Shown: piece by piece, positions 4,188 through 49,661 of the stretch
Layout of the letters: the number at the start of each line of letters is the position of its first letter
Position numbering within the stretch: the first letter of the stretch is position 1
Origin: a virus
Taxonomy: Duplodnaviria > Caudoviricetes
Direction: 5' to 3' (one strand)
Length of the DNA stretch: 64,000 nucleotides
Virus record (IMG/VR): IMGVR_UViG_3300020148_000032
Notes under the pieces: model-generated
Databases searched by the model: none
Told to the model about the DNA's origin: nothing
What the model saw: the letters and a program-made list of their open reading frames with translations, nothing else
Made by a program: the position numbers and the translations under genes

Positions 4188-4469
4188 GTGAAGGCTTATA
4201 TTCTGAATCTCATTAAGATTGTTCGGGTCTTTTTTGCAAAGCTTGTTATTCGTCAACATGAATACGCTATGTCTGAACTTGAATTCGAGCGAAAGATGAT
4301 CATTGAATCTTACGAGTCAAAGATTTCTCATTGGTCTCACCTCTCTTGGACTCCTGGATACCGCGATCTAGTTGAAGACTATGATGCTGAACTTAACAAT
4401 CTAGAGTCTCGGATCTCTATCCAAAAGGACTTGTATAATCGAGCAGTGAAGACTCTCGAAAATATTTAA
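4188..4469 (+). CDS. hypothetical protein
   Basis: GTG start with GAAAGG RBS. Confidence 0.6.
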   Translation: MKAYILNLIKIVRVFFAKLVIRQHEYAMSELEFERKMIIESYESKISHWSHLSWTPGYRDLVEDYDAELNNLESRISIQKDLYNRAVKTLENI

Positions 4470-4481
4470 GGCGGTAATGAA

Positions 4482-4799
4482 ATGCTTGAAATAACAATCA
4501 ATGGAAATTCTCATCGTCTTGAGAAGGTAGCCTTTGAAGACATTAAGATGGGAGATCATGTTGCTCATCTTTACATTGACCCAGAGGGTAATGGAAACCA
4601 ACTATGGTATGGAAATGTCAGCGGCGGGCAGCATGATCGACTTGGTGTAATTCGATACTACTGTAAGGCTGATCCTGAATCTTACGATTTCACGGTTGAG
4701 TCCGTAGCAAAGAGTCCCAATAACTCTTCAGAATGGGTTCTTGCTTCTTGGTGGCATGATGATGCCCCTGAGGGTCACTTCCTCTATCGTTTCATTTAA
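4482..4799 (+). CDS. hypothetical protein
   Basis: 105-aa ORF downstream of 4188 gene. Confidence 0.65.
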   Translation: MLEITINGNSHRLEKVAFEDIKMGDHVAHLYIDPEGNGNQLWYGNVSGGQHDRLGVIRYYCKADPESYDFTVESVAKSPNNSSEWVLASWWHDDAPEGHFLYRFI

Positions 4800-5006: not shown

Positions 5007-5420
5007 TTAAGAGAGAATAAAAGTATCAGTCGCGATAACCCTTTTAAAGGTTAGTGATCTAAGGTGAATCCTAATTAACTGAAGTATGATCTCAATGAAT
5101 TCCTCATCAGAACATTCAAGGGTAAAAAATCCATCTTGAAGAGAAGGGTCTTCATTGTAAGGCACCTCTACTTCGGAATAATCACCAGTTGCAAGACTGT
5201 GAATATGAGCTCTTGTGATTATTCTTTTATTATCAACCTTGCGCCACTCATGAATAGGGTCAAAATTTAAGTCAGAGATAACTTTCTTGTAAGCTCGTTT
5301 CAAATCACTAGTTTTTATGTTTTCTTGAATATGAAAAAGTGTAGGGACTTCATCATTACAAAACCTTATGTCAACAATTTCGGTTGCCATTATTTGACTC
5401 CCTCTAAAGAACCGATCCAA
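5007..5420 (-). CDS. hypothetical protein (start probably MATEIV ~5390)
   Basis: part of a minus-strand gene run; GAGGGAG precedes the internal ATG. Confidence 0.6.
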   Translation of the reverse strand: MDRFFRGSQIMATEIVDIRFCNDEVPTLFHIQENIKTSDLKRAYKKVISDLNFDPIHEWRKVDNKRIITRAHIHSLATGDYSEVEVPYNEDPSLQDGFFTLECSDEEFIEIILQLIRIHLRSLTFKRVIATDTFILS

Positions 5421-9864: not shown

Positions 9865-10077
9865 ATGACTGTTCAGCTCTTCTTGCATTGGAAACTCTAC
9901 CTTTGAACCCCTCACTAAGGGACCCGAGAACATCGTTCTTGTTATCCACCTGGAGGAAGGATATCTTATGCTAAAAGTCCATCAATTTATGAATCGCTTG
10001 CGATCAATGAAAGATTCGCGGGCGGTCGAATTCTTAAAGTCTTTCGACATGACAAGGAATTTACCGTCTCATTCTGA
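9865..10077 (+). pseudogene. possible frameshifted small gene
   Basis: promoter-like sequence and GAAAGG RBS before the ATG; coding-like segments continue in alternating frames; hairpin follows. Confidence 0.3.
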
Positions 10078-10099
10078 AAGTAAGGATTCTTAACCCTCA

Positions 10100-10151
10100 T
10101 ACTTGAAAACCTTGGTAACTGCTATACTGCGGCTACCAAGGTTTTCAAGTA
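10100..10151. terminator. inverted repeat / terminator
   Basis: tacttgaaaaccttggta...taccaaggttttcaagta. Confidence 0.65.
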
Positions 10152-10255
10152 AATCCATATCGTTACACATGATAATCTAACAATGCTGAACTAACTTAGT
10201 CTCTTGCCGACTACACGTAAAAGAGTCGTACAATCGCGCGAGATATAGACAAGAT

Positions 10256-10804
10256 TTACAAAGAGAGAAACCTTCTCATCTCTTCTAAATTCTTTGGGGT
10301 TAACCCATTCTTACTCTCGCATTCAACAGCAAGAACGCGAGGGTCTTGAAACACTTCATGAGTTTTAGAATAATAAGAGAGCAAGTTTCTATAACTCTTT
10401 ATGTCATCATCACACCAAATTACTTTATCTTCAATAGAAAGCGAGTCAAGTAATTTTTTCACTCCCTCAATTTTCCACCAATACGTTAAATTTCTAGAGA
10501 CCGTCTCTCGAATCCAATCCCAATCAGACCCAAAACCAAGTTCTGGAGCAAGTATTGAAACAGCGCGATCCTTCCACGTGGTACACCACATTCCTTGCGC
10601 TCTAGATTCAGTTAAAAGCTCTTTCAATTCTTTTACTAGATCTTTCGAATAACACACATCATAGACTCCAGCAAGCGTTGTACGAATCCACGATTCTTTA
10701 TCCCAATGAGAGAGATCCTCGTCTGAATCTGGGAGAGCATTCACAACACCATCAATGTCAAAGAGAATAAAAACTTTACCTTCGCTCAGAGTCATTTTTC
10801 TCAC
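10256..10804 (-). CDS. HAD-superfamily phosphatase (HAD_SAK-like)
   Basis: FDIDGVVN, WCTTW, K, VIWCDDD motifs. Confidence 0.85.
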   Translation of the reverse strand: MRKMTLSEGKVFILFDIDGVVNALPDSDEDLSHWDKESWIRTTLAGVYDVCYSKDLVKELKELLTESRAQGMWCTTWKDRAVSILAPELGFGSDWDWIRETVSRNLTYWWKIEGVKKLLDSLSIEDKVIWCDDDIKSYRNLLSYYSKTHEVFQDPRVLAVECESKNGLTPKNLEEMRRFLSL

Positions 10805-10851
10805 CTTTCAAAAGTTCCTCAAAAAGATTATAACGAGAGTTACTCTCTTAC

Positions 10852-10888
10852 TAGCAAACCGCCACCGCATAATGGTGGCGGTTTGCTA
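10852..10888. terminator. intrinsic terminator-like hairpin
   Basis: tagcaaaccgccacc...ggtggcggtttgcta. Confidence 0.7.
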
Positions 10889-10904
10889 TTCAAACGTTCA
10901 AAAC

Positions 10905-11348
10905 CTATCGCTCAATCACAACCTCGGTGGACTTGTTGATGATGGGGAACCAACTGAACAGACCAACACGATAGCCAGTTGTTTCGAAAGTGTAAGTCTC
11001 CCCAACAGTGATGCTTCCATAAATGTCGGCAGAGTTCGTCACGCCCTCGAACCAGTTATCCTTCACTAAGAGAACACCGCAATTGTCAGTGTAAATCCTC
11101 ATGGAGGACAAACCTCCCGAGTTACTCGTGCGATCCTTGTCAGTCACCACACAGTTCTCAAAAGTGCGGACGGGGGAAACATATTGTCCGATTGAGAAGA
11201 GACCAAAAACAATGACCCCAACAAGACCGATAACAAAGAAAACCCTCCCCGAGCTTACATGCGAACTGCGGGACTTATTCCAAGAGGTCTCAACAGTATT
11301 GAATTTTCCGCGGCTCATTTGTCCAGGGAAGAGATATGCCTTACCCAT
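10905..11348 (-). CDS. membrane-anchored phage-type protein
   Basis: one TM followed by VTDKDRT...YTD.CGV...D....SADIYG...G.TY...TTG.R...FSWFP. Confidence 0.7.
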   Translation of the reverse strand: MGKAYLFPGQMSRGKFNTVETSWNKSRSSHVSSGRVFFVIGLVGVIVFGLFSIGQYVSPVRTFENCVVTDKDRTSNSGGLSSMRIYTDNCGVLLVKDNWFEGVTNSADIYGSITVGETYTFETTGYRVGLFSWFPIINKSTEVVIER

Positions 11349-11378
11349 TGCGTCACTCCTTAATAGTTGTTAATCACT

Positions 11379-11408
11379 ATTATAATTGAAACGAATAAGG
11401 CTTGTCAA
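11379..11408 (-). promoter_or_regulatory. consensus sigma70 promoter
   Basis: TTGACA-18nt-TATAAT upstream of the AAGGAG RBS of 11348. Confidence 0.8.
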
Positions 11409-11723
11409 TATCTCTCTTACTTTAAAAGCCACCCGTAGGTGACCTCTAAAGAATTAGTGTTAAAACTAGCTCTAGTCATTCAGAATGACGATAATGAAAG
11501 CCAACCCAAAGGGCGAAAACTCCACCATCCACACTCTCAATCTGAAGTCACTCAAGACTCATCAAAACTTTTAATAATCTACTTATAGTTTGACAAGTCC
11601 ACCTGAAAGTTACCTTAAAAGGAAACCACAGTTGGCTCGCCACGGGTGAGGTTCTAACAGCATATTAGTACTCCACTGACGCATTATTCGTTCCTCAAAT
11701 TGAACCCGGGCGCGCCCAGTTAA

Positions 11724-12326
11724 TCAACCCTCTTCAATTCGTGATCTGACAGAACGAATACGTGCGCGCAAAGCCTCACGGAGCTCGTCAACAAGGTCCA
11801 AACTAGCATAACCCCACCCGTCAGCCATAACAGTAACAGTTTTATCAGACGAGAACACAATTGCACTAAAAGGAACAAGTGCTCCATTAGACAACTTCAC
11901 GTAATAGTCCTTGAAAATAAGGTCATCATCGCTAGGGTCGGAACCCGAGTTCTCGGACAACCAACTTAATTCGGCAAAGACTTCGAAAGCACTTTTAGGA
12001 GCTTCTTCAATGACATTCGCGCCACTCTCAATTGTCACGACCGAATCAATCATCACTGGGTCCTCACCAAGGTTAAAAGCTCCGTCCCCATTCAAACCAA
12101 CCCACGAACCAACAGCCCAACCAACACCACCCCGACGCTTTAACTCTTCCCACTCTGAATTCGTACCACCCGCAAAAATAAAAACCTGCTTCGCATTCAA
12201 ACCATCAAAAAGAATCGCGGGAGTCAGATTGATCCCACACTGGTCAAAAAAAGCAACCCACTGTAAAGAATCATTCGAGCCCTCGCTCTTATACTTCGCA
12301 AGATTATCAATCATTATGAAACCCAC
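11724..12326 (-). CDS. hypothetical protein
   Basis: 200-aa ORF with G/T-ending codons. Confidence 0.65.
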   Translation of the reverse strand: MGFIMIDNLAKYKSEGSNDSLQWVAFFDQCGINLTPAILFDGLNAKQVFIFAGGTNSEWEELKRRGGVGWAVGSWVGLNGDGAFNLGEDPVMIDSVVTIESGANVIEEAPKSAFEVFAELSWLSENSGSDPSDDDLIFKDYYVKLSNGALVPFSAIVFSSDKTVTVMADGWGYASLDLVDELREALRARIRSVRSRIEEG

Positions 12327-13196
12327 TAACCAATTCTAGAGAATTAATCATCACAAGAACTCTTCGTGAACCCCGCAAGGGTGTCCCCCTTTAAAAAGTT
12401 TCTCGCAACAATACTTCTTACCTATTAAATATTATACATAAAAGAAAGGAGAAGTACAATACTTCTCATCACAAAATTAAAAAGACCAGCCTTTTCAAAT
12501 TGACGATTACTTGCAATCTAAATTGACGACCCAAATACCAATTCCACATTTCAAAAAAAAAGAAAACAACAATGACATTCAGAAACTCCAGAATGTTCAC
12601 ACGCCAGAGGACACGACAAGCAAGTAAGATCACGCTCTCAAACAAAAACGGATTTTCACTAATTACCTAATGACAGTCCACCCCTGCAAACACTATTCAC
12701 AAAAACAACCTAAAGGTTCACGACAACCTCGGAACCATCAGGAAGGGTTACAACCGCCACCTGCGAATCCTTATCAATCACGCGAACAAGCACATTCACC
12801 ACAACAAGACCCACTTTCAAAAAGACTTTGATAAACCTCTGGACTAGCGTCAAGACCCTTCAAAACCCCGCACCGTCAAAAACCGCAGTCTCCCAGGATC
12901 ACAACTAAAGACGAACAACGCATCACGGTTTGACTAAAACACTGTTAGAACAAGAACCACTGTTTCTCATAAACACACTAGGTAATAACAAGCAATGACC
13001 CCTGCTAACAGTTTTCAATAATCAAAACAAGTGACTCTACAACCAACCAATCCTTAAAGTTTTATCAAACCCGAACCCTCACCGAGAGGTTTGACAACCG
13101 CTCCCTCATAAACATTTTTTAAAAGTGGCGCCACCCAGTGGATAAATGGTAAAGCCCCTCAACACGCTAGACTCTTTGAAAATTAAAAACAGTAGT

Positions 13197-13568
13197 CTAA
13201 CCCTCGGGGTACAATATAGAGAACGCTGACTGCTCGGGTAATTCACCGAACAAGTAAATCGCATCAGCATAAAACGCAAGGACATCCGCGTGACAAGGCA
13301 ACGGTGCGCAAAAACACTGGAGTCTTTTACCCTGTAAAGACACCACACTATCCAACAAATCAGAGGTTGCAAGAAAATACTCTTCAAACCTTCGAATCAC
13401 AACCTTTCGAGATTCAAGTTTCTCCTCCCGCGACGAACCAGTCAAAGGGTACGGGTTACCCCACTTTGAACCACGACCAACATACACATCAAACGGTGTC
13501 TTATGAAACTTATTCACAACAAGAGTAGGCGTGAAACCAAGACTGTCCACTTTCAACCCGCTTTCCAT
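13197..13568 (-). CDS. DUF4326 family protein
   Basis: DVYVGRGSKWGNPY and LQGKRLQCFCAPLPCHADVL motifs. Confidence 0.9.
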   Translation of the reverse strand: MESGLKVDSLGFTPTLVVNKFHKTPFDVYVGRGSKWGNPYPLTGSSREEKLESRKVVIRRFEEYFLATSDLLDSVVSLQGKRLQCFCAPLPCHADVLAFYADAIYLFGELPEQSAFSILYPEG

Positions 13569-13999
13569 TCTACAAACCTACCCTCTAGTTAAATGTAGAT
13601 CAAATCACCATGCAATCAAAAACCCTTAAACATTTTACCAACAATCAACATAGCGACAATCATCAAGCACAATCGAGTCAGGAGCGGTAATTCACACAAA
13701 CTTTCACAAACACTTTCACAAACACTTATTCCCTCAGCCTCCCCGCCATCAAAAAATCATTATTCAATTTTTATGCTCGTTCGCTAAAAACAAATAGAAT
13801 CCAAAATCAACACAAAACCCTACGCTCACAACCAACACCACCACACAAACAACACTGAACACGCAGACAACCTTTACCACCACAAAAATAAAAACCCTCA
13901 CAATTACGCTTACCACACTCACACAAACAACCACCAAACATCAAAAAAAATCAACCCAAAAAATAAAAAAAAGAAAAAAAAAAGAAAACAACCCTGACA

Positions 14000-15150
14000 T
14001 GGGGAACACTCCAGCGACAGCTGCCACTAGCCACCCTCCACTTACTCTCACTCTAACCACCAAGTGGTCGCCACCCGATGCCACCACTAACCACCGCTTT
14101 TAGACCCCAACGCTTTTAAAGTCCGCTCGCTTTAACAAGCTTTCACCAACACGACAAGTGCCACCCCATATTCTGAACCCCCAACCCCAATAGGGGCTTT
14201 AACCGGCTTTTACAAGCACCGAGGGTCTCACTCACCCAGGCTCAGGCGGACCGGGGTCCGCCTTCGCCACTGGCCTCCACTATACCAACGAGTAGTTCCA
14301 ATCACTCTACAAGTCACTAGGTGTCACGTCCACGCTTGCTCGAGACGTAGCCCAGTGTTCCAATGACACACTCTACACTGTCAGTCACACCTGCGCACTC
14401 GAGTGCCCCCTTCGGGGTTCATCTCGCACCCAGTTGTTCCTACCAAGTGCTTCACGAGTGTGCCACTTCCACACGACCTACTAGCAGCATGTCCGGACAC
14501 CATCGCTCCTTGAGAGCGCCTTCCACTACTCGAGGTACCGTTCCGGACCAGGACTCCCCGCCAAGGGTCCAGCCACCCCAAGTGGGGTGGCTACCCTCGC
14601 GGTCCGTCAAGCGCCGGACCACCACCTTCACCACTAGGGGTCCATGGCTTCCAACAGCCCTTTACCAAGTTTCCGGAAGGGCCAAGTCTTTACTCCCTTA
14701 CCGCTCTGCCCAAGCACAAGTCTACCGTCACCGCCCCAGGGGAGTGCACCGGCGCGAGGCACGCCGGGAGGCGTGCAGAGTGCCAAGGTGCACACGAGCC
14801 AGAGGGGTGAGGACCGGTCCACAGCGAGCACCGCGAGCGTGTGGAGTTGTCCGGTCCACCACTCGGGCGAGTAAGCCACCAAGGAGTGCCGCGCCACGGG
14901 GACGGGGAGCCACAAGTCGTGGAGCGAGGCGACCGGGTAGCAGCGGTGAACTTTTCAATCAGTTTTAGTAAGTGTTGGAAGTTCACCGGTGCGGACCGGT
15001 TGGCGAGCGTAGCGACCTTGGGGTGGACCGGACCACTAGAGTCACTATGAACGAGTAGCACCAAGTAGTGGTGGTAGGGTGAGTAGTGACTCTATGGCTA
15101 CGAGCGGAGTGAGTAGTCCCGGAACGAACGGTAGTGAGGTCCGCGGGTTT
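14000..15150. other. non-coding GC-rich structured island; candidate replication/transfer origin or large structured RNA
   Basis: much higher GC than flanks, many hairpins, repeated GGACCGG, located at a C/A-rich to G/T-rich strand switch. Confidence 0.55.
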
Positions 15151-15387
15151 GGGTTGTTCTTTGATTAATATAGTAGTATTGTGTTTTTGAGGTTTTTGTT
15201 TTAGTAAACGTATTTTTTGTTGGCTATAAGTGGGACTTAGTTTAGTCCGATATTATTTGTGTTGGGAAACTCTGCTGCTACTGGTATTGGTAGTGTGGGT
15301 AGTGGTGTGTTGAGTTTAGTTTGTAGTATATACTATGTATGTAAGACGCCGTTTCACAGTTGAGGTTTTAGCAAGGTTGGTGTTATT

Positions 15388-18300
15388 GTGAATGATAATC
15401 CGTTGAGTGGTTCTAGTGACTCTAGTGATGTTTCTAAGAAGTTTGTGGTACGTGATCCTTTGAATTCTAGAAAGCCGAACCCTTTGAGTTCTCGTGGTAT
15501 TGAGGGTGATGGTGTTATTGATTCTGAACTTGAGAGCAGTGATCCTCATTTTGTGAGTGATGCTTCTAGAGTGAAGAGGGTTGTTAAACCTTTTGCTCCT
15601 AAGGGTTTTGGAGTTCTTGGTTCGGATGATGGTGGAGTAGAATCAGGTGTTGTTCCTGAGGGTGTTGTTCCGGTTAAGCGTCAGGGTCCTGTTTTTAATT
15701 CTAAGAAGGTTGAGGATTTTGGTAGAAGTCGTGTGGCGAGTGAGACTTCTAATAGTGTTGTTCCAGTTGTTGAAAGTGGTGACTCTGGAGTTGTAATTGG
15801 TGTAGAGGGTGGCGAACTTGTTGTGCCTGTTGTGGAGGGTGATGCGGCTCTTGAGTCTGGAATTGGCATTCCTGAACCTGTTATTCATGATTTTGGTGGA
15901 GAGCCTGTTGGTGTTTTTGCTCTTGATTTTAATTCTGTTGGTGGAGATTCTGTTGCTGAGTTCTCTATTGATGATGTTCTTGGAGAGAGTATTGTTCCTG
16001 TGGTGAATGATTTAGTGACCCTTAGTGATGAGGAGGGTCATCATGTGGATGCTCGAGTATTGAGTGTTGGTGTTGATGGTATTGTGAGTGCTCTTGTTGA
16101 TTTTGATTCTTGGCGTGAGGTACCTTTTGGTTCTTTCGATAGTGATTCAAGTGGCGTGGGTTCTGGCGAGGATGATTTTGGCTCTTTTTATTCGAGTGAT
16201 GGACCTGTTAGTGATGACTTTGTGGATGAGGATCCTGTTGGAGAGGATGAGCAGTATTCTTGGGATGAGGAATCTGATTATGTGAGTGAGGGTGGTATTC
16301 CTGGTAGAGTAACTCCAGAGTTCGAGAGCGAATCTTTGGTTATTGAACCTGTTGTTAGTGATGTTTTAGATTCTAATAGTGATTCTGCTAGTGTGGTGAA
16401 CCCTTTTATAGATAGTGATGATTCTGAACTTTCGGGTGATGATTTGGGAGAGGGTGAGGTTGCTGGAGTTGTTAATGATGAACTTGAGGGTGATTCGTTT
16501 GTTGGTTCTGGTGATGATTCTTTAGTTGGTAGTGGTGATTCTCTTTCTCGTGAGCCTTTTAATCCTTTTGTGGATGATGATGGAGTCGAGTATTCTATTG
16601 ATGTGAGCGGTCTTTCTGGAGGTGACTCTCGTTTTGTTGAGAGAGATGAGGATGATAGTGATGGCGTTTTTGAGGGGTTTGATTCACAGCTTGATCAAGT
16701 GTTGAGTGATGATGAGGATGCTGTTGCGGGTAGAGTTTCGAGTAGTGAGAGTGGTGAGGGTGAGAGCGAAATCATTGTTAGTGATGAACCTGTTGAAGCT
16801 TTTAATCCTTTTGTGGGTGATGATGAGGGTGATTTTGATGAGTCTGGTGACTCTTTTGTTGAGGAAGTTGTTGATTCTCGTGGGCGTGTGAGTGAGCCTG
16901 GTGGGGGAGATAACCCATTTATTGGTAGTGATAGTGATGATTTGCCTTATCGTCCTAGGTTGGTTGATGGTGTTCCTGAGCGTGAGTTGTTGCCAGAGGG
17001 TGCTTTGAACCTTGTGAATAGGGTTCGTGAGACTAGTGTGGAGGATCGTGAGCGTATTCAAGCGGCTCGTGAGAAGGGTTCTTTAACGAAGTCTGGAGTT
17101 TTTGATAGTGATTTTAGTCCTAAGAGGGTGACCGAGGTTGTGGTTGATTCTCGTGGTAGGGGAAAAACTCGAGGTAAGGATCCACTTGTGAGGGGTGAAC
17201 CTGAAGGTGAGGGTTCTGGTGAAGAGTTTGGGTCACCTTCGGATTGGGTTGGAGCTACCCCTGTGAGGGAGCGCCAGCGTTACCAGTGGACTCGTGGTGA
17301 TGGTCGTTTGAATGGTAAAGAGTTAGAGTTTTTTAGGAATTTAGAGTTAAGTAAGTCAGAGTTCCAGCGTCGTGGAGATAGTGCGGTATTGTTGAGGAAG
17401 CCTGCTGGTGGTAATGAGAGTGAGGCTGAGCGTAAGGAGAGGGTGAAGCGCCTTACGAGAGCTATTGGTGGTCGTGAGGCTTTAGAACGTGGTACTCGTT
17501 TTCGTTTTGGGTGGAAGGAACGTGAGGTGTTAGAGTTCCTTGCAATGTTTAGGTATGCTACAGCTAAGCATTTGTCTCGAATGTTTAGTGAGGCAGAGTC
17601 TACCATGTATAAGAGGTTGAAGAAACTTCGTTTGCAGGGTCTTGTTATTGATAAGAAATTGTATGGGGCTCGTCCTATTTGGTTCCTTACTGAGGCTGGT
17701 CTTGTGGTAAGTGGGTTTGATTTACCGAGGGTTATCGAGTCCAAGTTAACTTTTAGTATGTTCCCTCACCAGTTCACGGTGAATAATACTGCGGCTAATT
17801 TGTGGGGAGCTAATGTTGATGTGTTGCATTTAGATAATTTTCCAGAGCGTAATCGTGAGGATGAGAAGGGTAATCCACGGTTTGGTGAGAAACTTGTGAG
17901 TGAGTTAGAGATCCAGTCATCGTTTGGTAAGTTGAAGATGTTTGATAAGAGTGATGTGTATAGACCACAGATTATTGGTCTTATTGAGCGTGAGTTTGCT
18001 GCTTGGGAAGAGGCCGGTGGGGTAGAGTTTGGACCTAGTCCAGAACAAGTGTATGGTAATGAGTACATGTGGGCTTTAATGCCTCCTTATAATGTGAAGT
18101 TGGCTTATCACGTTCCTGATTTAGTGGTAAAGCGTCCTCGTAATAGTGATGGTACTCCTAATAGTATTGCTGTTGAGATTGAGATTAATAATAAACCTAG
18201 TGCTAGTTATGAGAAGACTTTAAGGGCGTACTTGTTGGACTCCAGGTTGTATTCAAAAGTGATTTGGGTGTGTAAGAATGTTGGGCCTGCTCGAAAGCTT

Positions 18301-18408
18301 GAAAAGATTGGTAAAGATTTGGGTATGTTGCAGAGTGGTAAGCTTAATATTGTCCCTGTTCTTACTGAGGATGGTGTGTTTAAGGAGCGTGACTTGTGGA
18401 CTTTATAA
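15388..18408 (+). CDS. Replic_Relax-like protein (wHTH + PD-(D/E)XK) with ~520-aa acidic low-complexity N-terminus
   Basis: VLEFLAMFRYATAKHL...RLKKL...GLV...WFLTEAG...HQF...VPDLVV...IAVEIE...YEKTLRAY. Confidence 0.75.
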   Translation: MNDNPLSGSSDSSDVSKKFVVRDPLNSRKPNPLSSRGIEGDGVIDSELESSDPHFVSDASRVKRVVKPFAPKGFGVLGSDDGGVESGVVPEGVVPVKRQGPVFNSKKVEDFGRSRVASETSNSVVPVVESGDSGVVIGVEGGELVVPVVEGDAALESGIGIPEPVIHDFGGEPVGVFALDFNSVGGDSVAEFSIDDVLGESIVPVVNDLVTLSDEEGHHVDARVLSVGVDGIVSALVDFDSWREVPFGSFDSDSSGVGSGEDDFGSFYSSDGPVSDDFVDEDPVGEDEQYSWDEESDYVSEGGIPGRVTPEFESESLVIEPVVSDVLDSNSDSASVVNPFIDSDDSELSGDDLGEGEVAGVVNDELEGDSFVGSGDDSLVGSGDSLSREPFNPFVDDDGVEYSIDVSGLSGGDSRFVERDEDDSDGVFEGFDSQLDQVLSDDEDAVAGRVSSSESGEGESEIIVSDEPVEAFNPFVGDDEGDFDESGDSFVEEVVDSRGRVSEPGGGDNPFIGSDSDDLPYRPRLVDGVPERELLPEGALNLVNRVRETSVEDRERIQAAREKGSLTKSGVFDSDFSPKRVTEVVVDSRGRGKTRGKDPLVRGEPEGEGSGEEFGSPSDWVGATPVRERQRYQWTRGDGRLNGKELEFFRNLELSKSEFQRRGDSAVLLRKPAGGNESEAERKERVKRLTRAIGGREALERGTRFRFGWKEREVLEFLAMFRYATAKHLSRMFSEAESTMYKRLKKLRLQGLVIDKKLYGARPIWFLTEAGLVVSGFDLPRVIESKLTFSMFPHQFTVNNTAANLWGANVDVLHLDNFPERNREDEKGNPRFGEKLVSELEIQSSFGKLKMFDKSDVYRPQIIGLIEREFAAWEEAGGVEFGPSPEQVYGNEYMWALMPPYNVKLAYHVPDLVVKRPRNSDGTPNSIAVEIEINNKPSASYEKTLRAYLLDSRLYSKVIWVCKNVGPARKLEKIGKDLGMLQSGKLNIVPVLTEDGVFKERDLWTL

Positions 18409-18456
18409 CGCGACTTGATGATATTATGTGTAGTGTTTTTATAGGAATAGTGGGTT

Positions 18457-19872
18457 TTGATCGTGGTTTTTGATAATGATTCTGGAGAACTACCTGATGA
18501 GACTAGTGATAGTTTCTCTTTACCTGATGTTAGTCCAGATGAACTTCCAGAATTTCCAGAATTGCCCGATGCGGAAAATTTAGAGGCTCTTATTCAAGAG
18601 GCAATTGAGGATTCTGAAGTTGAAGATGATTTGTTCTCTAGCAGCCTTGATGATCTTATTAAAATGCGTGATTCTTCAGATAACTCTTATGATGAGAATG
18701 ATTCTTTTGGTGGAGTTTCCGATGAAGTTAAAGAGCCGAGAGAGGTTTTATCGAAGTCTTTTGGTGCTTTTGCTGTTGAGGATGATGAGGATCCGTTACT
18801 TGGGTTTAATATTGATAAGGTTTTAAGTGATGCTATTGACCTTGGAGCTTCTGATGTGCATATTAACCCTAATGATCAAGTGAGTTTTACGATACTTGGT
18901 GACATTTATAGACAACCTGGTTATGTAGAATTGACTGGTAATATTACTCAGAGGTTACAACAAAAGATTATTTCCCATGTTCTTGAGGCTGATTTTGTTG
19001 AAGAATTAGAGTTGGACACGAGTTATGTAATAAAGACTGGCAAGCATCGTGGTCGCCGAATGCGTTTGAGTGTTGGTAAAAGTTTCGGTGAAATCTTCAT
19101 GGTTTTCCGTGTGATTGCTGACAAGGTTCCTACTCCTGAAGAGTTGGGTATCAGTGGAGAATTACTTAGTTGGACAGAGCTACCTAATGGTTTGATAATG
19201 GTGAATGGACCTACTGGTACTGGTAAGAGTACTACGCTTGCTAGCATGTTAAAGAAGATTCAGTTAGAGCGCGCGCAGAAGGTTATTACTATTGAGCGAC
19301 CTATTGAGTTCGTGTTTGGTAATGAGGGTAAGGCTTTAGTAACTCAGCGTGAGGTTGGTAAGGATGCGCGTAGTTTCTCTAATGCTTTGACTAGTGCGAT
19401 GCGTCAGGCGCCGGATATTATTATGGTGGGTGAGGTTCGTAATCGTGTTGAGGTGAATGAGTTGTTAAGGGCTGCTGAGACGGGCCACCTTGCTATTAGT
19501 ACTATGCATACGAATAGTGCTCCAGCGACTATTAATCGTATTAAGTCTTTGTATGAGGGTGATGAGCAATTAAGGATTTTGTCTGGACTTAGTGATGTTG
19601 CTCGTGGTTTTGCTAATCAGGTCTTGTTAAAGACTGTTGATGGTAAGGGTCGCTTTGCTGTTCGTGAGGTTCTTCCAGTAACTCGTGAGATTCAAGATTT
19701 GATACTTAAGGGTGATGTGAGAGGTATTCGTGAGTACCAGATTGACAATAAGATTACTATGGAGCATGAACTTGTGAAGGCTGTTAGAAGCGGTAAAGTT
19801 GATGTTCGTACTGCTCGAGGTCAAAGCGCTTACCCTCATTATTTTGATGAGTTAATGAATTCTCGTTTCTAG
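18457..19872 (+). CDS. pilT: PilT/PilU-like pilus ATPase
   Basis: GASDVH, GPTGTGKSTTL, TIERPIE, SAMRQAPDIIMVGEVR, AAETGHLAISTMHTNSA. Confidence 0.9.
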   Translation: MIVVFDNDSGELPDETSDSFSLPDVSPDELPEFPELPDAENLEALIQEAIEDSEVEDDLFSSSLDDLIKMRDSSDNSYDENDSFGGVSDEVKEPREVLSKSFGAFAVEDDEDPLLGFNIDKVLSDAIDLGASDVHINPNDQVSFTILGDIYRQPGYVELTGNITQRLQQKIISHVLEADFVEELELDTSYVIKTGKHRGRRMRLSVGKSFGEIFMVFRVIADKVPTPEELGISGELLSWTELPNGLIMVNGPTGTGKSTTLASMLKKIQLERAQKVITIERPIEFVFGNEGKALVTQREVGKDARSFSNALTSAMRQAPDIIMVGEVRNRVEVNELLRAAETGHLAISTMHTNSAPATINRIKSLYEGDEQLRILSGLSDVARGFANQVLLKTVDGKGRFAVREVLPVTREIQDLILKGDVRGIREYQIDNKITMEHELVKAVRSGKVDVRTARGQSAYPHYFDELMNSRF

Positions 19873-20056
19873 ACATTGGAGTGTAATGATGAATTTTGAT
19901 GCTTATTATAATGATTCACCTATTTATCGTTGTAAGAAGTGTGGTAAGCGGAATGTTGTTGTCTTTGGTAATCTCCCTACTGACTCGAATTTTAAGTGGA
20001 AAGAGTAACATCTTTTTGAAACTTTTTAGAAAAATCATCTAAATTGGAGTCTTTTT

Positions 20057-20833
20057 ATGCCTAAATACCACATCTCTATAAATGGAGAGCCTGCAGTTTG
20101 TAGAGCTTTTAAGCGACCTTGCCCAGTAGGTGGAGAACATTTTGATACGATGAAAGATGCTAGAGGTTGGCTGGAATCAAAACTTGAGGCACTTACGATC
20201 ACGTCATTATCAAAGAATCTTGATTCTTATCCATTAGTGATGAAGAATGGAGAGCTTGTGAGAACCGGACTTGTCATGTCTAGTAATTTTATTAAAGAGG
20301 TTGCAGAGAAAAGCGATAAGAATGAGAAGTGGTCTGGAACTTGGGAAGAACTAGAAAACCTTGTCATGAAGAATATGGATAATTGGTCTCCAGGTACTGG
20401 TAGTGTGGATGGGGATGTTCGTTTAGTTCATGTTCCTTCTGAAGGTTTTTATACTAATATTGTAGAAATAAATGATGAGAACAAGCATCTTGTTGAAACT
20501 GTTTGGGAAGCTCGAGTTGAGAAGGAAGATCCGGTACCGATTAGAGTGATCATGGGGGATGAATATGCTCCTGCTCATCATGTGGATGTAGTTCTTTATA
20601 GAGCTGATGTTCTTGCTAAGGATGATGATAGATCAAGTATTGCTGAGTGGGAAATTGTGAGTGTTAATTCTAAACCTGAAGAATTTGTACCTATGCACCC
20701 TAATACTATGAAAAGGAATGCTTCTAATTCTGTAGGTGGAACGTTAAGGGAATACTCTAAAGAACAGTGGGAAGAGTCCGAAAAGTATTGGGATTCTCAT
20801 GTATATGTTCGTCTTAAGAAGCAAGAATTTTAA
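20057..20833 (+). CDS. HCCH-module protein #1 with DUF3228-like C-terminal domain
   Basis: N-term YHISINGEPAVCRA..CPVGGEH; WEARVEKEDPV, VDVVLY, WEIVSV, PMHPNTMKRNA..GG, YW motifs. Confidence 0.8.
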   Translation: MPKYHISINGEPAVCRAFKRPCPVGGEHFDTMKDARGWLESKLEALTITSLSKNLDSYPLVMKNGELVRTGLVMSSNFIKEVAEKSDKNEKWSGTWEELENLVMKNMDNWSPGTGSVDGDVRLVHVPSEGFYTNIVEINDENKHLVETVWEARVEKEDPVPIRVIMGDEYAPAHHVDVVLYRADVLAKDDDRSSIAEWEIVSVNSKPEEFVPMHPNTMKRNASNSVGGTLREYSKEQWEESEKYWDSHVYVRLKKQEF

Positions 20834-20836
20834 AGT

Positions 20837-21628
20837 TTAAGAGGTTGACCTGAGATTTTCAGAATATTTTTGGTAAATTTCTTTACCTATTTTGAAGGAT
20901 TCTGAGGATGCTTTCTCCATAGTTTTCATGATTTTTTGAGCCCATGGGTGATCAGGTTCGGCTTGCAAGAACTTTAAGACTTCCATTCCTACGAGAGGTT
21001 GGAAGTAAACTGCATATATCGCATCTTCGTCCCAATGATAAAGGTTCCCATTAACTGCAGCATCAGGGTGGTCAGAATTTTTCTTGAATTGTAAAGAAAT
21101 ACAACTTTTGAGAAACAAATATTCGCGGCGGACCTTTTTGAAAGGGTTTTTCTCCTCATTTTCTCTTTTAGAGTTACCGAAAGTTTTTCGTGAGTGAGAA
21201 TATAGTGATATACCCTTCTTAGTCTTTTTAGCGAAAGAGTAATGTTTTCTTTCTTTATAGCGAATGTGTTCTAGATCCTCTATAATCGGATCATATGGTA
21301 GAGGTTCGTGATTAGAGCCAAATTTACATGCATTAAATTCAGCATCGTCAAGTATATTTTGCTGTTTCTTAGTGTAAGAATTAAGGTATTTTTGGTTAAA
21401 GTGTTCTGGAAGATAAGTTTCTTCTTTAAGTAGCTTTTTAGAAACTTTGTCCCCTGCTTCTATGTGCTCTTTTAAGTGGACGACTAAGTCAGTAGCATTG
21501 AAGAATGGTTGATCTTTAAACTTGTGTAGTTTGCATCCATCGCATTTAATATAACCACGGTAGTCAGAAATAATGGTAAGGGCTTCGTCTTTGTTAGTGT
21601 AGCGGTGTTGATTTTTTAACCAATCCAT
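20837..21628 (-). CDS. hypothetical protein with N-terminal C2H2-like motif
   Basis: CDGC...HLKEH; AAGGGAG RBS. Confidence 0.65.
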   Translation of the reverse strand: MDWLKNQHRYTNKDEALTIISDYRGYIKCDGCKLHKFKDQPFFNATDLVVHLKEHIEAGDKVSKKLLKEETYLPEHFNQKYLNSYTKKQQNILDDAEFNACKFGSNHEPLPYDPIIEDLEHIRYKERKHYSFAKKTKKGISLYSHSRKTFGNSKRENEEKNPFKKVRREYLFLKSCISLQFKKNSDHPDAAVNGNLYHWDEDAIYAVYFQPLVGMEVLKFLQAEPDHPWAQKIMKTMEKASSESFKIGKEIYQKYSENLRSTS

Positions 21629-21734
21629 TATGGAACTCCCTTACTTGCTATTCATACTTTCATTTTTTCACTATTATTTTATCAAGTTTTTAACGTCATA
21701 CATTGGTATAATAGTAATAAATGCGGAGGTTAAT

Positions 21735-22232
21735 ATGAATGTTTTTCTTGTTGGAAATTCACAAAAAGACCTCGAGTGGGCTAAATCCTTTATTAAAGAA
21801 CACGATGGAGTTCTTATTGAACGGGATAAAGTTTACTCTAATTTGTTTAAATCTGAACCAACAAGTGGGGATATTATACAGAATGAATTAATTTTTGACG
21901 AGATTCTTTATTCTATCTTTGATCTCATGCAAATTAAAGTGGAAACAATTGTTGTTTCTATTTCGCATTTATCTGATGCTTTCTATACTTTTCTTATCAT
22001 GATGAGACAAGCTCTTGATGATTTCCCTATTAATTCTCTTGTTAAAATCCTTTCTGATGGAGAATCTAAGGACGACTTTACTGACCTTGGTGATGATCTT
22101 GTTAAGGTGTATGGATTGCAAATGGGTTATGGAGAAGTCATCGGAGACGTTCCAATTGAAATGAATTTATTTCTTCAAAGTATAGTTATTGATTTTTATC
22201 CCACGTCTTTAAAAGATGTAAAGTTTTCATAG
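21735..22232 (+). CDS. hypothetical protein, possibly a degenerate P-loop kinase fold
   Basis: GGAGG RBS before ATG 21735; TGGTATAAT upstream. Confidence 0.55.
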   Translation: MNVFLVGNSQKDLEWAKSFIKEHDGVLIERDKVYSNLFKSEPTSGDIIQNELIFDEILYSIFDLMQIKVETIVVSISHLSDAFYTFLIMMRQALDDFPINSLVKILSDGESKDDFTDLGDDLVKVYGLQMGYGEVIGDVPIEMNLFLQSIVIDFYPTSLKDVKFS

Positions 22233-22249
22233 AAAGAAAGTAGTGAATA

Positions 22250-23671
22250 ATGAGTTTATTTCCTGATTTAGAATCTGATAGAGTCGGCGTTCCAAAGTTT
22301 AACGCTAAAGCTCCGCTTGCCGCTAGAATGCGCCCGCAAACTGTTCAAGACTTTTTTGGACAGTCGCAAATCCTTGTCAAGGGTTCACCTGTGGAAAGGT
22401 TCTTAAATCCAGAAACTGCTGATAGTTCTCTTGTTCCACCTAGTCTTATCCTTTGGGGACCTCCCGGAACAGGTAAAACTACACTTGCTTACCTTATAGC
22501 TAAAGAGTCTAACAAGAGGTTCCTTGAATTATCAGCGGTAAGTGACGGTATTCAAGAGGTAAAATTCGCTGTTAATGACGCTAAGGGCCGTCAGGAAGAC
22601 GGTAGAGAGACAATCCTTTTTATTGATGAGATTCATCGTTTTAGTAAGAATCAACAGGATAGTCTTTTACCTGCTGTTGAAAATAAGTCTGTTACTCTTA
22701 TTATGGCAACTACGGAGAACCCAAGTTTTTCTATTGTAGCTCCGTTATTATCACGCTCTTTAATGGTGACTTTACATCCTTTATCTGAGGATAATATTAG
22801 GTCTATTATTAAAAATGCGCTTCTTGATGAACGGGGTTTGAACGGTAAATATACTCTTACTGATGAGGCTTTAGAGATTCTGGCGCGTATTAGTAGTGGT
22901 GATGCTCGTAAAGCATTGACTATTCTTGAGGCTGCCGCTGGTGTTTCTCATAGTTTTAAGAAGAATGTAATTGATAAAGAAGGGCTAGAACTTGCGGCTC
23001 AACAGGCTTTAGTGCGTTGGGATAATGATCAGCATTATGATGTAACGAGCGCTTTTATTAAATCTATGAGAGGTAGCGACCCTCACGCTACACTTCATTA
23101 TCTTGCTAGAATGATTGAAGCAGGAGAAGATCCACGTTTTATTGCTCGTAGAATTATGATTGCTGCTAGTGAAGATGTAGGTCTTGCTGACTCAAGTGTT
23201 TTGCAAACAACAGTGGCTGCTGCTCAAGCTGTCGCTCTTATTGGTTTTCCAGAAGCAAGGATTATTCTTTCACAGGCTGCTCTTTCGGTAGCTAATGCTC
23301 CTAAATCTAATTCGGCACTTGTGGGTATTGATAAGGCTTTGGAAGATGTAAGAATGGGTATTACTGGCCCGGTCCCTTCGCATTTGAGAGACGCTCATTA
23401 TTATGGAGCTAAAGCTCTTGGTAATGGTGTGAAGTATAAATATCCGCATTCTTTCGCTGGGGGTTTTGTCGAGCAACAGTATTTACCTGACGAGTTAGTT
23501 GGCAAAGAATATTACATTTCAAAGAACCCTAATGAAATTTCAATGGGTAATGTTGGAGTAATTCAAGGTACTGTTAGTGAAAATACAGTAAAATCTTCTT
23601 CAAAGTCTAGTGAAGATTTCTTTATTGATGATTCTCCACGAAACGCTCCTCATTCTGACGATATTTTCTAA
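22250..23671 (+). CDS. rarA: replication-associated recombination protein A (RarA/MgsA)
   Basis: PLAARMRP, GPPGTGKT, FIDEIHRF, ATTENPSF, HYDVTSAFIKSMRGSD, ASEDVG. Confidence 0.96.
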   Translation: MSLFPDLESDRVGVPKFNAKAPLAARMRPQTVQDFFGQSQILVKGSPVERFLNPETADSSLVPPSLILWGPPGTGKTTLAYLIAKESNKRFLELSAVSDGIQEVKFAVNDAKGRQEDGRETILFIDEIHRFSKNQQDSLLPAVENKSVTLIMATTENPSFSIVAPLLSRSLMVTLHPLSEDNIRSIIKNALLDERGLNGKYTLTDEALEILARISSGDARKALTILEAAAGVSHSFKKNVIDKEGLELAAQQALVRWDNDQHYDVTSAFIKSMRGSDPHATLHYLARMIEAGEDPRFIARRIMIAASEDVGLADSSVLQTTVAAAQAVALIGFPEARIILSQAALSVANAPKSNSALVGIDKALEDVRMGITGPVPSHLRDAHYYGAKALGNGVKYKYPHSFAGGFVEQQYLPDELVGKEYYISKNPNEISMGNVGVIQGTVSENTVKSSSKSSEDFFIDDSPRNAPHSDDIF

Positions 23672-23850
23672 TTTTTGACGAGTGGAGTCTGTTAGTTTCT
23701 CGATTTTAGAATTAAGATCTGCAATATTTTTCAAATTTTTTCAATATTTTCTGTGATTTTGGGAATTATTTGATAACTTTATCGTTATAATTACTGAGTG
23801 TAATATTAGTTATTACACTTAACATCTACTTTTAAGAAGGAGAGGTAAAC

Positions 23851-24255
23851 ATGTTTAACAGAACACTTGTTACTGTTCCGGAGGCATTTTTCTCAAAGAT
23901 TAATGACCTTGGTGATTTCTTTAGTGAGTTTAAAGACTCTTATAAAGATTTGGCTGATTTTAAGCGTGATGTTGCTGAAGATGGAACTATTACGTTATCG
24001 ATAGAGGTTCCAGGGTTTTCGGCCAAAGATGTAAAAGCTGATTATTCTTCTAAAGATAAGAAACTTTCTATTGTTGCTGAGAAGGAAGAAGCCGGAAGTT
24101 TCTCTAGAAAAGTCGTAGCGTTTTCTATTAATATTAGTCAACCTGAGAAGGTCACAGTCAAAGTAGAAAATGGGATGGCTGTTGTAGTTGTTCCTGCTGT
24201 CGCTTTAAAGAGCGATGAGGAAGATGCGAGCGTCGTTTCAATCCCAGTTGAATAA
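23851..24255 (+). CDS. small heat-shock protein (Hsp20 family)
   Basis: IEVPGF..DV...V.VENG.AVVVVP alpha-crystallin pattern; AAGGAGAGG RBS. Confidence 0.75.
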   Translation: MFNRTLVTVPEAFFSKINDLGDFFSEFKDSYKDLADFKRDVAEDGTITLSIEVPGFSAKDVKADYSSKDKKLSIVAEKEEAGSFSRKVVAFSINISQPEKVTVKVENGMAVVVVPAVALKSDEEDASVVSIPVE

Positions 24256-41995: not shown

Positions 41996-42036
41996 GAGAA
42001 ATCCTCGATTAATTTTATTTATTTTCTAACTCATTA

Positions 42037-42963
42037 TTAAGAAAAGATTGTTGATAAAAACTTCCAACCCGATAAGACAATAAGAACTCCAAAGAACGGA
42101 ACGAAAAGATAACGCTCCACAACTCCACCTGCTTTAATACTTGTAAAACGAGTATTCCACCAGAATTTACCTTTAAGTTTTGCAGATAATGGGAACAAAA
42201 TTGGAACTCCAGCAGTAGTGAAAGCATCACCAACAATATGAATAATCATACCAAGGGCAACAGAAACCCCAAGCCACCAATAATCTAAATCTTTAGGTAA
42301 ATTCACAAATATAGAATATGTCACCACAAAACTTACCACAAAGGCAATAAGCTCACCAAGAGGACCCGACGTCTTAATAGATTTCATAAAATCTTTACCA
42401 ATACTTGACAAAGACAAGTGAACAAGAATATAGGTAATAAGTAATGCAACAAGAGTTCCATACTCAATATTCCCAATCATAGGTAGTGTAGTTGAACCAC
42501 CTATTCTAGTTCCAAGTATAGTCATACCCCCAAGGAACAAAGCCGCCGGTATAGTATGCCAAGCTCCACGGTGAGGGTTAGGGGTTAGGTCATCCCTCTT
42601 AGTGCGAATAGTCGTTTGTAAGAAAACAGACGAACCTCTAAAGATAGCTGATAAAATGTTACCTAACAATCCAAGACTATTCTCAGCAGTAGAGACACTA
42701 TTATCAAGGTCATTAATGAGAGCGGCTCCAGCCGTCACAATACATGCAAGAGTTACAACCCAAACGTCATAAGTTCCAAAAAGTCTTTCAAAGTAATCAG
42801 GCCAAAAAGCAAAAAAAGTAAGGAAAAGAGCAATAGCACTAAGTGAATGAGTGAACCCCATAAAACCGTGGGCTTCATAATATCTCTTTTTAAGATAATG
42901 TAAAACTATAGAGAAGTCATTCCCTCTAGGGGGATGGATAAGACATTCGTCTTGGTTTTGCAT
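42037..42963 (-). CDS. YdjM-like membrane metal-dependent hydrolase
   Basis: MGFTH, DLD, HRGAWHT, HIVGDAFT..GVP motifs, multi-TM. Confidence 0.85.
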   Translation of the reverse strand: MQNQDECLIHPPRGNDFSIVLHYLKKRYYEAHGFMGFTHSLSAIALFLTFFAFWPDYFERLFGTYDVWVVTLACIVTAGAALINDLDNSVSTAENSLGLLGNILSAIFRGSSVFLQTTIRTKRDDLTPNPHRGAWHTIPAALFLGGMTILGTRIGGSTTLPMIGNIEYGTLVALLITYILVHLSLSSIGKDFMKSIKTSGPLGELIAFVVSFVVTYSIFVNLPKDLDYWWLGVSVALGMIIHIVGDAFTTAGVPILFPLSAKLKGKFWWNTRFTSIKAGGVVERYLFVPFFGVLIVLSGWKFLSTIFS

Positions 42964-43047
42964 ATAATCCTCTTTCAATATGTTGAGTAAAAAGAAATAT
43001 CGGTTCTTGAAAACTCTAAGAACCGATACTTCCCTAACAAACAGTTA

Positions 43048-45492: not shown

Positions 45493-45618
45493 TACTTACT
45501 TACCATCCTTGCGTTAAAAATAGAGTACATCACTACTATTTTATCAAAATCGAACGTAGAATTAATATATCAACTTTAAAGGAGTTAGAAAATATTCTAA
45601 CAACAAAGGTAGGTTCTT

Positions 45619-46527: not shown

Positions 46528-46543
46528 CACGCCTCCTCTAAAA

Positions 46544-46587
46544 AGTAAGGCACCGCGGGTTACCCTCCTTTACCGCGGTGTCTTACT
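46544..46587. terminator. terminator-like hairpin
   Basis: agtaaggcaccgcgg...ccgcggtgtcttact between convergent genes. Confidence 0.7.
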
Positions 46588-47507: not shown

Positions 47508-47513
47508 AAATAT

Positions 47514-49643: not shown

Positions 49644-49661
49644 GTATACTTACTCCATTTG

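Follow-up and report, generated by a model that had tools for sequence, protein, structure and literature searches.

The 64,000-nucleotide (nt) stretch of DNA analysed here in full (the window) belongs to IMG/VR virus record IMGVR_UViG_3300020148_000032, a 437-kb plasmid- or phage-like element assigned to Caudoviricetes. Two diverging gene blocks in the window are separated by a gap of 1.8 kb (13569-15387) that is entirely free of genes according to the list of open reading frames (ORFs) and Pfam searches. On the left, the gap is bounded by a gene for a DUF4326 protein (13197-13568, - strand) and, on the right, by a conserved gene for a 1006-aa protein (15388-18408, + strand) that combines an acidic disordered N-terminus with a winged helix and a nuclease domain of the PD-(D/E)XK fold; both genes point away from the gap. 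The core of the gap is a GC-rich island filled with hairpins and repeats (14000-15150). An earlier reading of this DNA, made from the letters and ORFs alone (hereafter, the sequence-only reading), described the island as non-coding and took it for a replication or transfer origin, or else for a large structured RNA. Here we describe the anatomy of the island and its counterparts in related giant elements, and interpret it, with reserve, as the core of a replication origin region.

By composition, the island differs sharply from its surroundings. The 300-nt windows over 14050-15100 have a GC fraction of 0.55-0.66, compared with 0.38-0.46 in the adjoining arms and about 0.35 in most of the window. 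A hairpin scan of the island returned three perfect hairpins (stem of at least 7 bp, loop of 4 nt), against 0.49 +/- 0.70 in dinucleotide shuffles: a palindrome at 14244-14263 (8-bp stem, with GGACCGG inside), a hairpin at 14571-14592 (9-bp stem, AAGT loop) and another at 14759-14776 (7-bp stem, GGGA loop). A 9-bp stem at 14947/14979 and an 11-bp stem formed by 15037-15047 and 15084-15094 were confirmed as well. Thus, nearly all the stems listed in the sequence-only reading stand, the exception being ccc-TTCG-ggg at 14408, where the stem is merely 3-4 bp long and weak. The heptamer GGACCGG occurs at exactly the four positions that had been given for it (14248, 14811, 14993 and 15025) and is otherwise absent from the 64 kb, with four copies in the core against 0.14 expected. 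The reverse complement, CCGGTCC, is present at 14814, at 14851, where a reversed copy had been noted, and at an unrelated site at 23369. The site at 14811 is a 10-bp palindrome, GGACCGGTCC, and four of these sites (14811, 14851 reversed, 14993 and 15025) cluster within 14806-15036, the fifth being that at 14248. The repeat previously noticed as cactat..aacgagtag is also real, and turned out to be part of a bipartite direct repeat (GGYGGACCGG ... CCACTA..AACGAGTAG..CCAA), the two + strand copies of which, at 14245-14301 and 15022-15064, bracket the core. Word usage in the core is skewed, with an ApT odds ratio of 0.30 and a 2.7-5-fold over-representation of GGWCC, CACTA, CGAG and CAAG.

The left edge of the GC-rich core is marked by an A-rich tract (13934-13990, + strand; 27 A in the best 30 nt) that is a candidate DNA-unwinding tract. 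Beyond the right edge, an AT-rich, C-poor stretch (15151-15387, + strand) precedes the 1006-aa gene and is presumed to be its promoter or leader; a consensus scan of this stretch found no sigma-70 site, and scanning for sigma-70 promoters and terminators gave no excess over shuffles. Several other kinds of content were searched for in and around the island. Six-frame translations of pieces of the core matched nothing in the relatives by tblastn and include no conserved ORF, and reading TAG as Gln in the island yields just low-complexity frames rich in P, R, S and T, so that the non-coding status holds, for a gap even wider than had been claimed. The search for tRNAs and tmRNA found none, the TTAGAnA box is absent from 13569-15387, and blastn of 13000-16500 against the PLSDB plasmids and INPHARED phages gave no match. 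A single giant palindrome was considered and rejected, as no long inverted repeat links the C-rich left half of the island to the G-rich right half.

The gap is also where the strand composition of the element switches. GC skew changes from -0.64 at 13600-14050 to +0.52 at 15100-15400, and the cumulative minima lie at 14737 for GC skew and at 14897 for keto (G+T) content, in agreement with the switch near 14.73 kb reported in the sequence-only reading. On the + strand, the left arm (10000-13999) is C/A-rich, with keto fractions of 0.27-0.44 and a bias that fades leftward, and the right arm (15151-24000) is G/T-rich, with the keto fraction declining from 0.71 to 0.55 over a region that includes a - strand ORF (20837-21628). 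The skew peaks at the island and dies away over 10-15 kb; the skewed zone is thus local, occupying about 10 to 24 kb of the window, with weak skew beyond, faded by about 25 kb. Within the left arm, an 870-nt segment (12327-13196) is strongly C/A-rich and has no convincing ORF; it could contain small genes or more non-coding sequence of the skewed zone.

Homologues of the 1006-aa gene were collected, together with their surroundings, from IMG/VR, JGI, ENA, NCBI and Logan assemblies, and conservation of the locus was assessed in a first set of 10 loci and in 24 further loci with enough upstream sequence (L numbers below; G numbers denote genomes). An equivalent gap is located upstream of the same gene in every related giant element examined, on contigs of up to 0.83 Mb. 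In the conserved order, small leftward genes are followed by a gap of 1.5-3.5 kb free of genes, the gene for the winged helix-turn-helix (wHTH) nuclease and a T2SSE ATPase gene, and then usually by genes for a NAD-ligase and a ParA-like protein. An inversion of skew upstream of the gene is present in all 10 first loci. In 22 of the 24 further loci, the keto-skew minimum is about 250-3200 nt (mostly less than 2000 nt) upstream of the gene, and in the other two the switch is beyond the left end of the fetched DNA; the keto fractions in this set are 0.22-0.44 to the left and 0.51-0.77 to the right. This layout is shared by loci in which protein identity reaches down to about 30%. Most of the loci have a GC-rich peak within the gap, AAAAAAGA/AAAAAGAA occurs upstream in 10 of the 10 first loci, and the core is bordered on its left by an A-rich tract in L001/L005 and L006 and, in a weaker form, in L003, the tract being clearest in the low-GC members.

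Thus, the layout and the skew flip beside the same wHTH-nuclease gene recur in about thirty related giant elements, although the gap DNA itself is not alignable between lineages. The latter fact is what would be anticipated if the island had no function and were a spacer that is GC-rich by chance or a leftover of foreign DNA. This explanation is barely credible and is already contradicted by the comparative data, given that the layout, the skew flip, the repeat arrays and the hairpin excess recur in some thirty loci, that motif counts and folding are far from those of shuffled sequences, and that covariation is detectable in one sublineage (see below). A physical genome end at the island was likewise rejected: at least 10 independent assemblies read straight through it. 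In L038-L040, which are IMG/VR contigs of 307-361 kb with about 30% identity, the gene lies deep in a G/T-rich arm (keto 0.65-0.88), more than 4 kb of which precede the gene, so that the switch is farther from the gene than in the clade of the window.

The direction of the skew does not follow the direction of the genes. In the right arm, - strand genes of solid Pfam identity keep G/T-rich third codon positions on the + strand: expressed in + strand terms, the GC skew at third positions is +0.75 for the ligase and +0.46 for the ParA gene of L009, +0.70 for an SMC-like gene of L006 and about +0.5 for its two neighbours, +0.49 for a gene of L005 and +0.34 for the window ORF 20837-21628. Likewise, + strand ORFs of the left arm retain the sign of that arm. 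G002, a whole relative of 344,889 bp, has 217 of its 239 long ORFs on one strand and a weakly negative skew genome-wide; its - strand genes with a positive keto skew at third positions all fall in one 15-kb bin, on the right side of the island. Being independent of gene direction and fading out over 10-15 kb, the skew is indicative of a process that acts on DNA strands and spreads from the island, not of transcription.

The nature of the bias can be specified further. On the outward strand, C and A are both depleted, and T and G are both enriched; the third positions of the 1006-aa gene, for example, consist of 0.11 A, 0.05 C, 0.26 G and 0.58 T. Joint loss of C and A with gain of T and G is the pattern expected of deamination in an exposed single strand, a process that has been proposed for the heavy strand of vertebrate mitochondria. 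The sign of the skew is that expected if polymerases exit the island in both directions, displacing the outward-running strand. A double-strand break with 5' resection was rejected as the source of the bias, by reasoning only, since it would predict the opposite sign.

Arrays of short repeats in one direction are the next shared component. In 11 lineages, GTG(T)-N(0-10)-CACAC(Y) is found in 3-9 copies, 300-1300 nt upstream of the gene and oriented like it; in shuffled sequences, the maximum for any 8-mer is 4-5 copies. The repeat takes the form CGCACAC(Y) preceded by GTG(T) in L001/5, L002/3, L004, L006, L041, L048 and L050, and the form GTGTCACAC in L007, L008, L058 and L060. In two complete relatives, the motifs are specific to the island, with 5+5 hits in G001 (309 kb), all in a 600-bp segment, and 3 hits in G002 (345 kb), all in a 250-bp segment. 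CGCACAC arrays are absent from the window, where the pattern AGTG.{3,10}CACAC gives three hits in 64 kb, each of them on the + strand within the island: two AGTGT-N-CACAC copies at 14354-14371 and 14457-14474 and an AGTG-N-CACAC copy at 14779-14795. The island of L001 contains, in addition, a second repeat family, CGCTGACGCG (4333-4635 and 5021-5036), with five copies in the same direction and one or two inverted; these are interleaved with the GTGT..CGCACAC sites and are unique to the island in this 309-kb genome.

Repeats and palindromes of this kind might also belong to a regulatory or segregational site, either a control region with multiple operators for the diverging gene blocks or a centromere to which a partner of the ParA-like ATPase would bind, with the skew being unrelated. 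Indeed, the palindromes (GGACCGGTCC and the GTGT..ACAC arms) resemble operators of dimeric winged-helix proteins, repeat arrays are typical of plasmid centromeres as well, and a gene for a ParA-like ATPase, syntenic in several lineages, is 10-14 kb away from the island. Centromere repeats, however, are usually tightly packed, and a hairpin block selected for pairing, such as that described below, is unexpected for operators that function as duplex DNA. Furthermore, this explanation, which we consider improbable, does not account for the strongest strand asymmetry of the genome being centred here in every lineage regardless of gene direction.

The right part of the island (14880-15150, + strand) folds into a long hairpin (14932-15000), a second hairpin (15037-15094) and enclosing helices. 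The excess of folding over shuffled sequence in this 271-nt segment corresponds to a z of -6.6 on the + strand and, in a second run, to -7.0 on the + strand and -3.9 on the - strand; the long stems contain G-U pairs. This is possibly a short structured module that favours the + strand, as either RNA or single-stranded DNA. In L001 (z -7.8), L004 (-6.7), L009 (-4.3), L044 (-8.5) and L041 (-5.8), comparable multi-hairpin modules precede the gene by 250-500 nt, but a module at this position is not universal among the relatives. Averaged over ten lineages, the excess of folding clusters around the switch, up to about 400 nt away (mean z of -0.6 to -1.7), and is close to zero beyond 600 nt, with no consistent strand preference on either side; a mirror-image strand preference of the hairpins across the switch, unseen in this average, was rejected. 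In L044, the module (1780-2150, z -8.5) includes several stems with UAGC loops (GUU-UAGC-AAC, AGU-UAGC-ACU and GCGC-UAGC), which suggests a repeated hairpin recognised by one factor.

Selection on base-pairing was detected in one sublineage, represented by L048, L049, L050, L051 and L054 (five sequences in about three groups), where the gap is alignable. A 300-nt block of this alignment is 65-90% identical, compared with 39-66% in the flanks. In the consensus hairpins of the block, which were derived from the same alignment that was used to score them, 19 pairs are changed on both sides and 94.7% of the cells are paired; this level of pairing was reached by none of 500 shuffles, and slid controls gave 0-5 pairs. 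The covariation term is slightly better on the + strand (-3.9 vs -1.3). The compensatory changes are of the Watson-Crick type and are compatible with either strand and with RNA or DNA. In L048-L051, L054, L057 and L058, a covariance model of part of the block detects a second, weaker copy (E of 2e-5 to 0.1), which is located 400-600 nt farther left and on the opposite strand. These double-hairpin copies, all on the - strand, were mapped to 2838-2927 in L048, 2774-2880 in L051, 2507-2633 in L054, 1811-1925 in L050 and 2783-2883 in L058, and their loops read GCC-AGC / GCGCCAGC. The L048 sublineage thus appears to hold a diverging pair of related hairpin modules. Outside its own sublineage, the model of the block (R1) gave one significant match (L058, 30.4 bits) and otherwise marginal ones (E of at least 0.7), and it had no hit in the window.

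These data bear on the proposal of a large structured RNA on the + strand. A single RNA spanning the entire 1.1-kb island is unsupported, because it matches no Rfam family, the composition flips in the middle of the island, and the sequence is unalignable between lineages; what survives of the proposal is the module of about 270 nt. The Rfam 15 search (which includes GOLLD, ROOL, group II introns and tmRNA), a check named in the sequence-only reading, gave no gathering-level hit in the 64 kb, and with E of up to 10 the best score in 13400-15700 was 20 bits against a cut-off of 55. Of the further checks it named, folding yielded an excess that is larger on the + strand, and covariation yielded compensatory changes in the L048 sublineage, the module of the window being unalignable across lineages.

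A more limited version of this proposal holds that a structured RNA is the main product of the locus, either as a long 5' leader of the 1006-aa gene or as an independent non-coding RNA (14880-15150, + strand; about 270 nt) that might have a counterpart on the - strand. The gap would then be a divergent promoter region, and the skew would come from very strong outward transcription. The stronger fold and the G-U pairs on the + strand would fit, as would the same strand preference in L001 (-8.0 vs -4.4), L004 (-6.6 vs -3.0), L041, L048 and L008, the compensatory changes in the L048 sublineage with their slightly better + strand term, and the opposite-strand copy 400-600 nt to the left, which would suit two diverging RNAs. 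Nevertheless, we consider an RNA as the main product rather unlikely. No Rfam family matches even at E of up to 10, the module is missed by the covariance model across lineages, the window included, and no promoter or terminator consensus stands out. The ten-lineage average has no strand preference, and Watson-Crick compensatory changes suit DNA hairpins equally well. Finally, genes that run the opposite way keep the skew, which transcription of those genes cannot explain. The roles of RNA and origin are not mutually exclusive, as exemplified by origins of the ColE1 type.

Conservation of the 1006-aa protein next to the island is limited to the last approximately 420 residues. The first approximately 600 residues (encoded by 15388-17180) form an acidic extension, rich in D, E, S, G and V and predicted to be disordered, the length of which varies widely among the homologues (553-1044 aa in total). 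There are 249 homologues, none of them named, and many are encoded on contigs of 0.3-0.83 Mb. AlphaFold (AF2) models built on an alignment of 72 sequences are confident, with predicted local distance difference test (pLDDT) values of 85 and 90. In these models, the first conserved domain is a MarR-like winged helix (structural match with Z of 8-10). For the last 220 residues, nearly all of the best structural matches are of the restriction-endonuclease fold, with moderate but uniform Z of 5-7, and include AF1548, NucS, LlaBIII, BspD6I, Can2/Card1, BsaWI and SgrAI; an Asp, a Glu-x-Glu (E-x-E) and a Lys are invariant across the 72 sequences. A helix-turn-helix (HTH) domain followed by a PD-(D/E)XK core with acidic and lysine residues is the architecture described for Replic_Relax (PF13814), a family of Gram-positive plasmids linked to plasmid replication and relaxation (PMC3424549). 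The Pfam match of the window protein to this family is weak, at 16.4 bits, under the cut-off of 25.3; among nine relatives, two pass the cut-off (P0114 with 26.9 and P0120 with 28.5 bits), and five others score 21-23. Compared with Replic_Relax proteins, the window protein is 2-5 times longer, with its long acidic disordered N-terminus. It is a putative winged-helix and PD-(D/E)XK nuclease, distantly Replic_Relax-like. A correlation between the recognition helix of this protein and the type of repeat motif across lineages is suggestive at best.

The same protein is the starting point for the idea that the island is a transfer origin (oriT), in which the Replic_Relax-like nuclease would nick an island hairpin and a single strand would be exported with the help of the PilT/VirB11-type (T2SSE) ATPase. 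Apart from the HTH and nuclease domains and the weak Replic_Relax match, the synteny of the ATPase gene (18457-19872, + strand; identified by Pfam) with the 1006-aa gene in the relatives and the likeness of hairpins adjoining short repeats to nic regions are compatible with such a role. Yet transfer of a single strand would expose the same strand all round and predicts neither a skew inversion nor two-sided decay, whereas a sharp inversion is observed at 14737-14897 and in the relatives. No HUH or MOB relaxase domain was found by the Pfam scan, in which the weak Replic_Relax match is the sole sign of a relaxase, and repeats in the same direction with an A-rich tract would rather be expected at a vegetative origin. 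Taken together, this makes a transfer origin highly improbable.

Replication is thus the better supported half of the original proposal of a replication or transfer origin beside a Replic_Relax-like gene. We assign a probability of roughly 0.55 to the island being the core of the replication origin region of the 437-kb element, an interpretation drawn from sequence comparison. It is favoured because of the conserved gap with the skew flip beside the same gene, the repeat array, the skew that is independent of gene direction, the A-rich tract, the pairing-selected hairpins and the neighbouring nuclease of a replication-associated superfamily. Under this scenario, a sequence-specific protein, for which the adjoining winged-helix and PD-(D/E)XK protein would be the most economical candidate, would bind the AGTGT-N-CACAC sites, which all run in the same direction, and the GGACCGG(TCC) palindromes. 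The duplex would open at or near the A-rich tract, or be nicked, and DNA synthesis, if it indeed starts here, would exit the island in both directions, leaving the outward-running parental strand on each side transiently single-stranded. Over evolutionary time, the exposed strand would gather C-to-T and A-to-G changes, which would account for how extremely rich in G+T the + strand is on the right and the - strand on the left. The GC-rich hairpins at the switch would act in single-stranded form, as signals for priming or protein loading, or else as a structured primer or leader RNA.

Several observations weigh against a replication origin, at least one of a familiar kind. The skew is local, not replichore-wide as around a bidirectional origin of the chromosomal type: the positive arm of G002 covers about 15-20 of 345 kb, and the weak genome-wide sign is regained about 15-20 kb to the right of the island. 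Because the bias fades within 10-15 kb, two equal replichores are not recorded. A classical symmetric bidirectional origin is accordingly not what the skew reflects, and a very asymmetric origin or short-range strand displacement must be assumed. In principle, strong outward read-through transcription could also mark - strand genes. The repeats are spaced irregularly, by 35-320 bp, and the form of the motif in the window was recognised after the relatives had been seen, so that it counts less than the GGACCGG statistics. No DnaA box (TTATCCACA, with at most one mismatch) was found in 13519-16220. The neighbour protein does not belong to a known initiator family: it has no Pfam match to a Rep family, and tblastn with its conserved domain detected no relative in 72,556 plasmid (PLSDB) or 50,697 phage (INPHARED) records.

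The short range of the skew implies that an origin at this site would either be very asymmetric or begin with a strand-displacement phase of some kilobases. In the asymmetric version, almost all of the genome, which is transcribed nearly in one direction, would be replicated by a single fork, and the opposite fork would cover only about 15 kb. A bolder possibility, which we put forward tentatively as less likely than not, is an origin of a new kind for giant bacterial extrachromosomal elements, in which a winged-helix and PD-(D/E)XK nuclease, rather than Rep or DnaA, opens or nicks the GC-rich hairpin field, and two-sided strand displacement over several kilobases follows. On that equally tentative view, replication would start from a D-loop or R-loop, possibly RNA-primed by the structured module, and would leave a deamination gradient like that of mitochondria, from which the start site could be read in the sequence.

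Known origins offer partial parallels. In iteron-type origins with an adjacent rep gene (pPS10, RK2 oriV, P1 oriR and F oriS), as in the island, short sites run in the same direction next to an A+T-rich tract, a gene for a winged-helix protein is located next door, and the sequence of the site drifts between lineages; in the island, at least three same-direction copies of the candidate initiator site and an adjacent A+T-rich tract are present. Iterons, however, are spaced regularly, by about 22 bp, in tight arrays that the island does not have. Other differences are the lack of DnaA boxes in the island, the nuclease domain joined to the MarR-like winged helix of the neighbour protein, the GC-rich and hairpin-dense core, and the size of the region, 1.8 kb rather than 200-400 bp. 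The R-loop and D-loop origins that involve hairpin priming on the displaced strand, such as ColE1 (RNA II, primosome assembly sites) and pAMbeta1 (ssiA), share with the island a structured GC-rich start segment, with hairpins that would act on the displaced single strand, and the early leading-strand synthesis without a coupled lagging strand that is proposed here. Those origins fire in one direction over a few hundred bp, whereas the two-sidedness of the island is implied by the skew only.

The control region of animal mitochondria is likewise non-coding, contains stem-loops and is where a G+T-rich strand bias is set. There, too, silent sites are biased whatever the direction of the gene, and the strand asymmetry of mitochondrial genomes is attributed to the time spent single-stranded during replication (PMC4182315). 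In mitochondria, one strand is biased genome-wide, whereas here the bias changes sign at the island and has faded after 10-15 kb, in a genome that exceeds 300 kb. Among giant extrachromosomal elements, the closest comparison is with Inocle, circular plasmid-like elements of 245-370 kb from oral Streptococcus, the marker gene of which, InoC, encodes an N-terminal PF13814 domain; membership calls for an InoC homologue on such a contig, with identity above 70% within the family (PMC12340149). Both groups consist of giant elements with one conserved marker gene of the PF13814 type, the domain being located at the start of the conserved part, and G002 (344,889 bp) falls in the same size class; the element of the window, at 437 kb and from an ant-associated metagenome, is likened to Inocle by domain make-up and size class only. 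The origin and terminus of Inocle were predicted from cumulative GC skew, with ORF direction switching there; in the sections of that report consulted here, there is no mention of a gene-free gap, of repeats or hairpins in it, of an extreme short-range skew or of its independence from gene direction (PMC12340149).

Plasmid- or phage-like elements of 0.3-0.8 Mb are increasingly encountered in microbiomes, and almost nothing is known about their replication. The candidate origin is narrowed here to 1.8 kb with nameable parts, namely repeats, a putative melting tract, a hairpin block and a predicted DNA-binding nuclease; if the interpretation is right, these could make up a minimal replicon for constructing vectors or tracking giant elements. 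A strand bias this strong, confined to a short range and indifferent to gene orientation, is not what bacterial replicons usually display. Should it record a start by strand displacement, it would provide a way to locate origins in uncultured elements from sequence alone.

Some further features of the element and its relatives are worth recording. In G002 (loci L013-L030), the two terminal 50-nt segments are exact reverse complements of one another, labelled 'inverted terminal repeats' in IMG/VR; identity between the ends falls to background by 200 nt, and an assembly artefact is possible. Fragments nearly identical to the locus occur in ant, compost, fermentation and manure metagenome contigs, all from DNA runs in which parts without cover are uninformative; in the compost, fermentation and manure sets (runs X4-X6), short contigs 90-99% identical to 11500-19500 were found. 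Close relatives of the element are thus not confined to ant-associated samples; these fragments show that the sequence is real and widespread and say nothing on function. Elsewhere in the window, there are genes for a NAD-ligase, gyrase A and B, a ParA-like ATPase and a RadA-like protein. The region of the two gyrase genes (42000-50000) has a GC fraction raised to 0.38-0.42 and a GC skew down to -0.21, and represents a second, milder compositional anomaly of the window.

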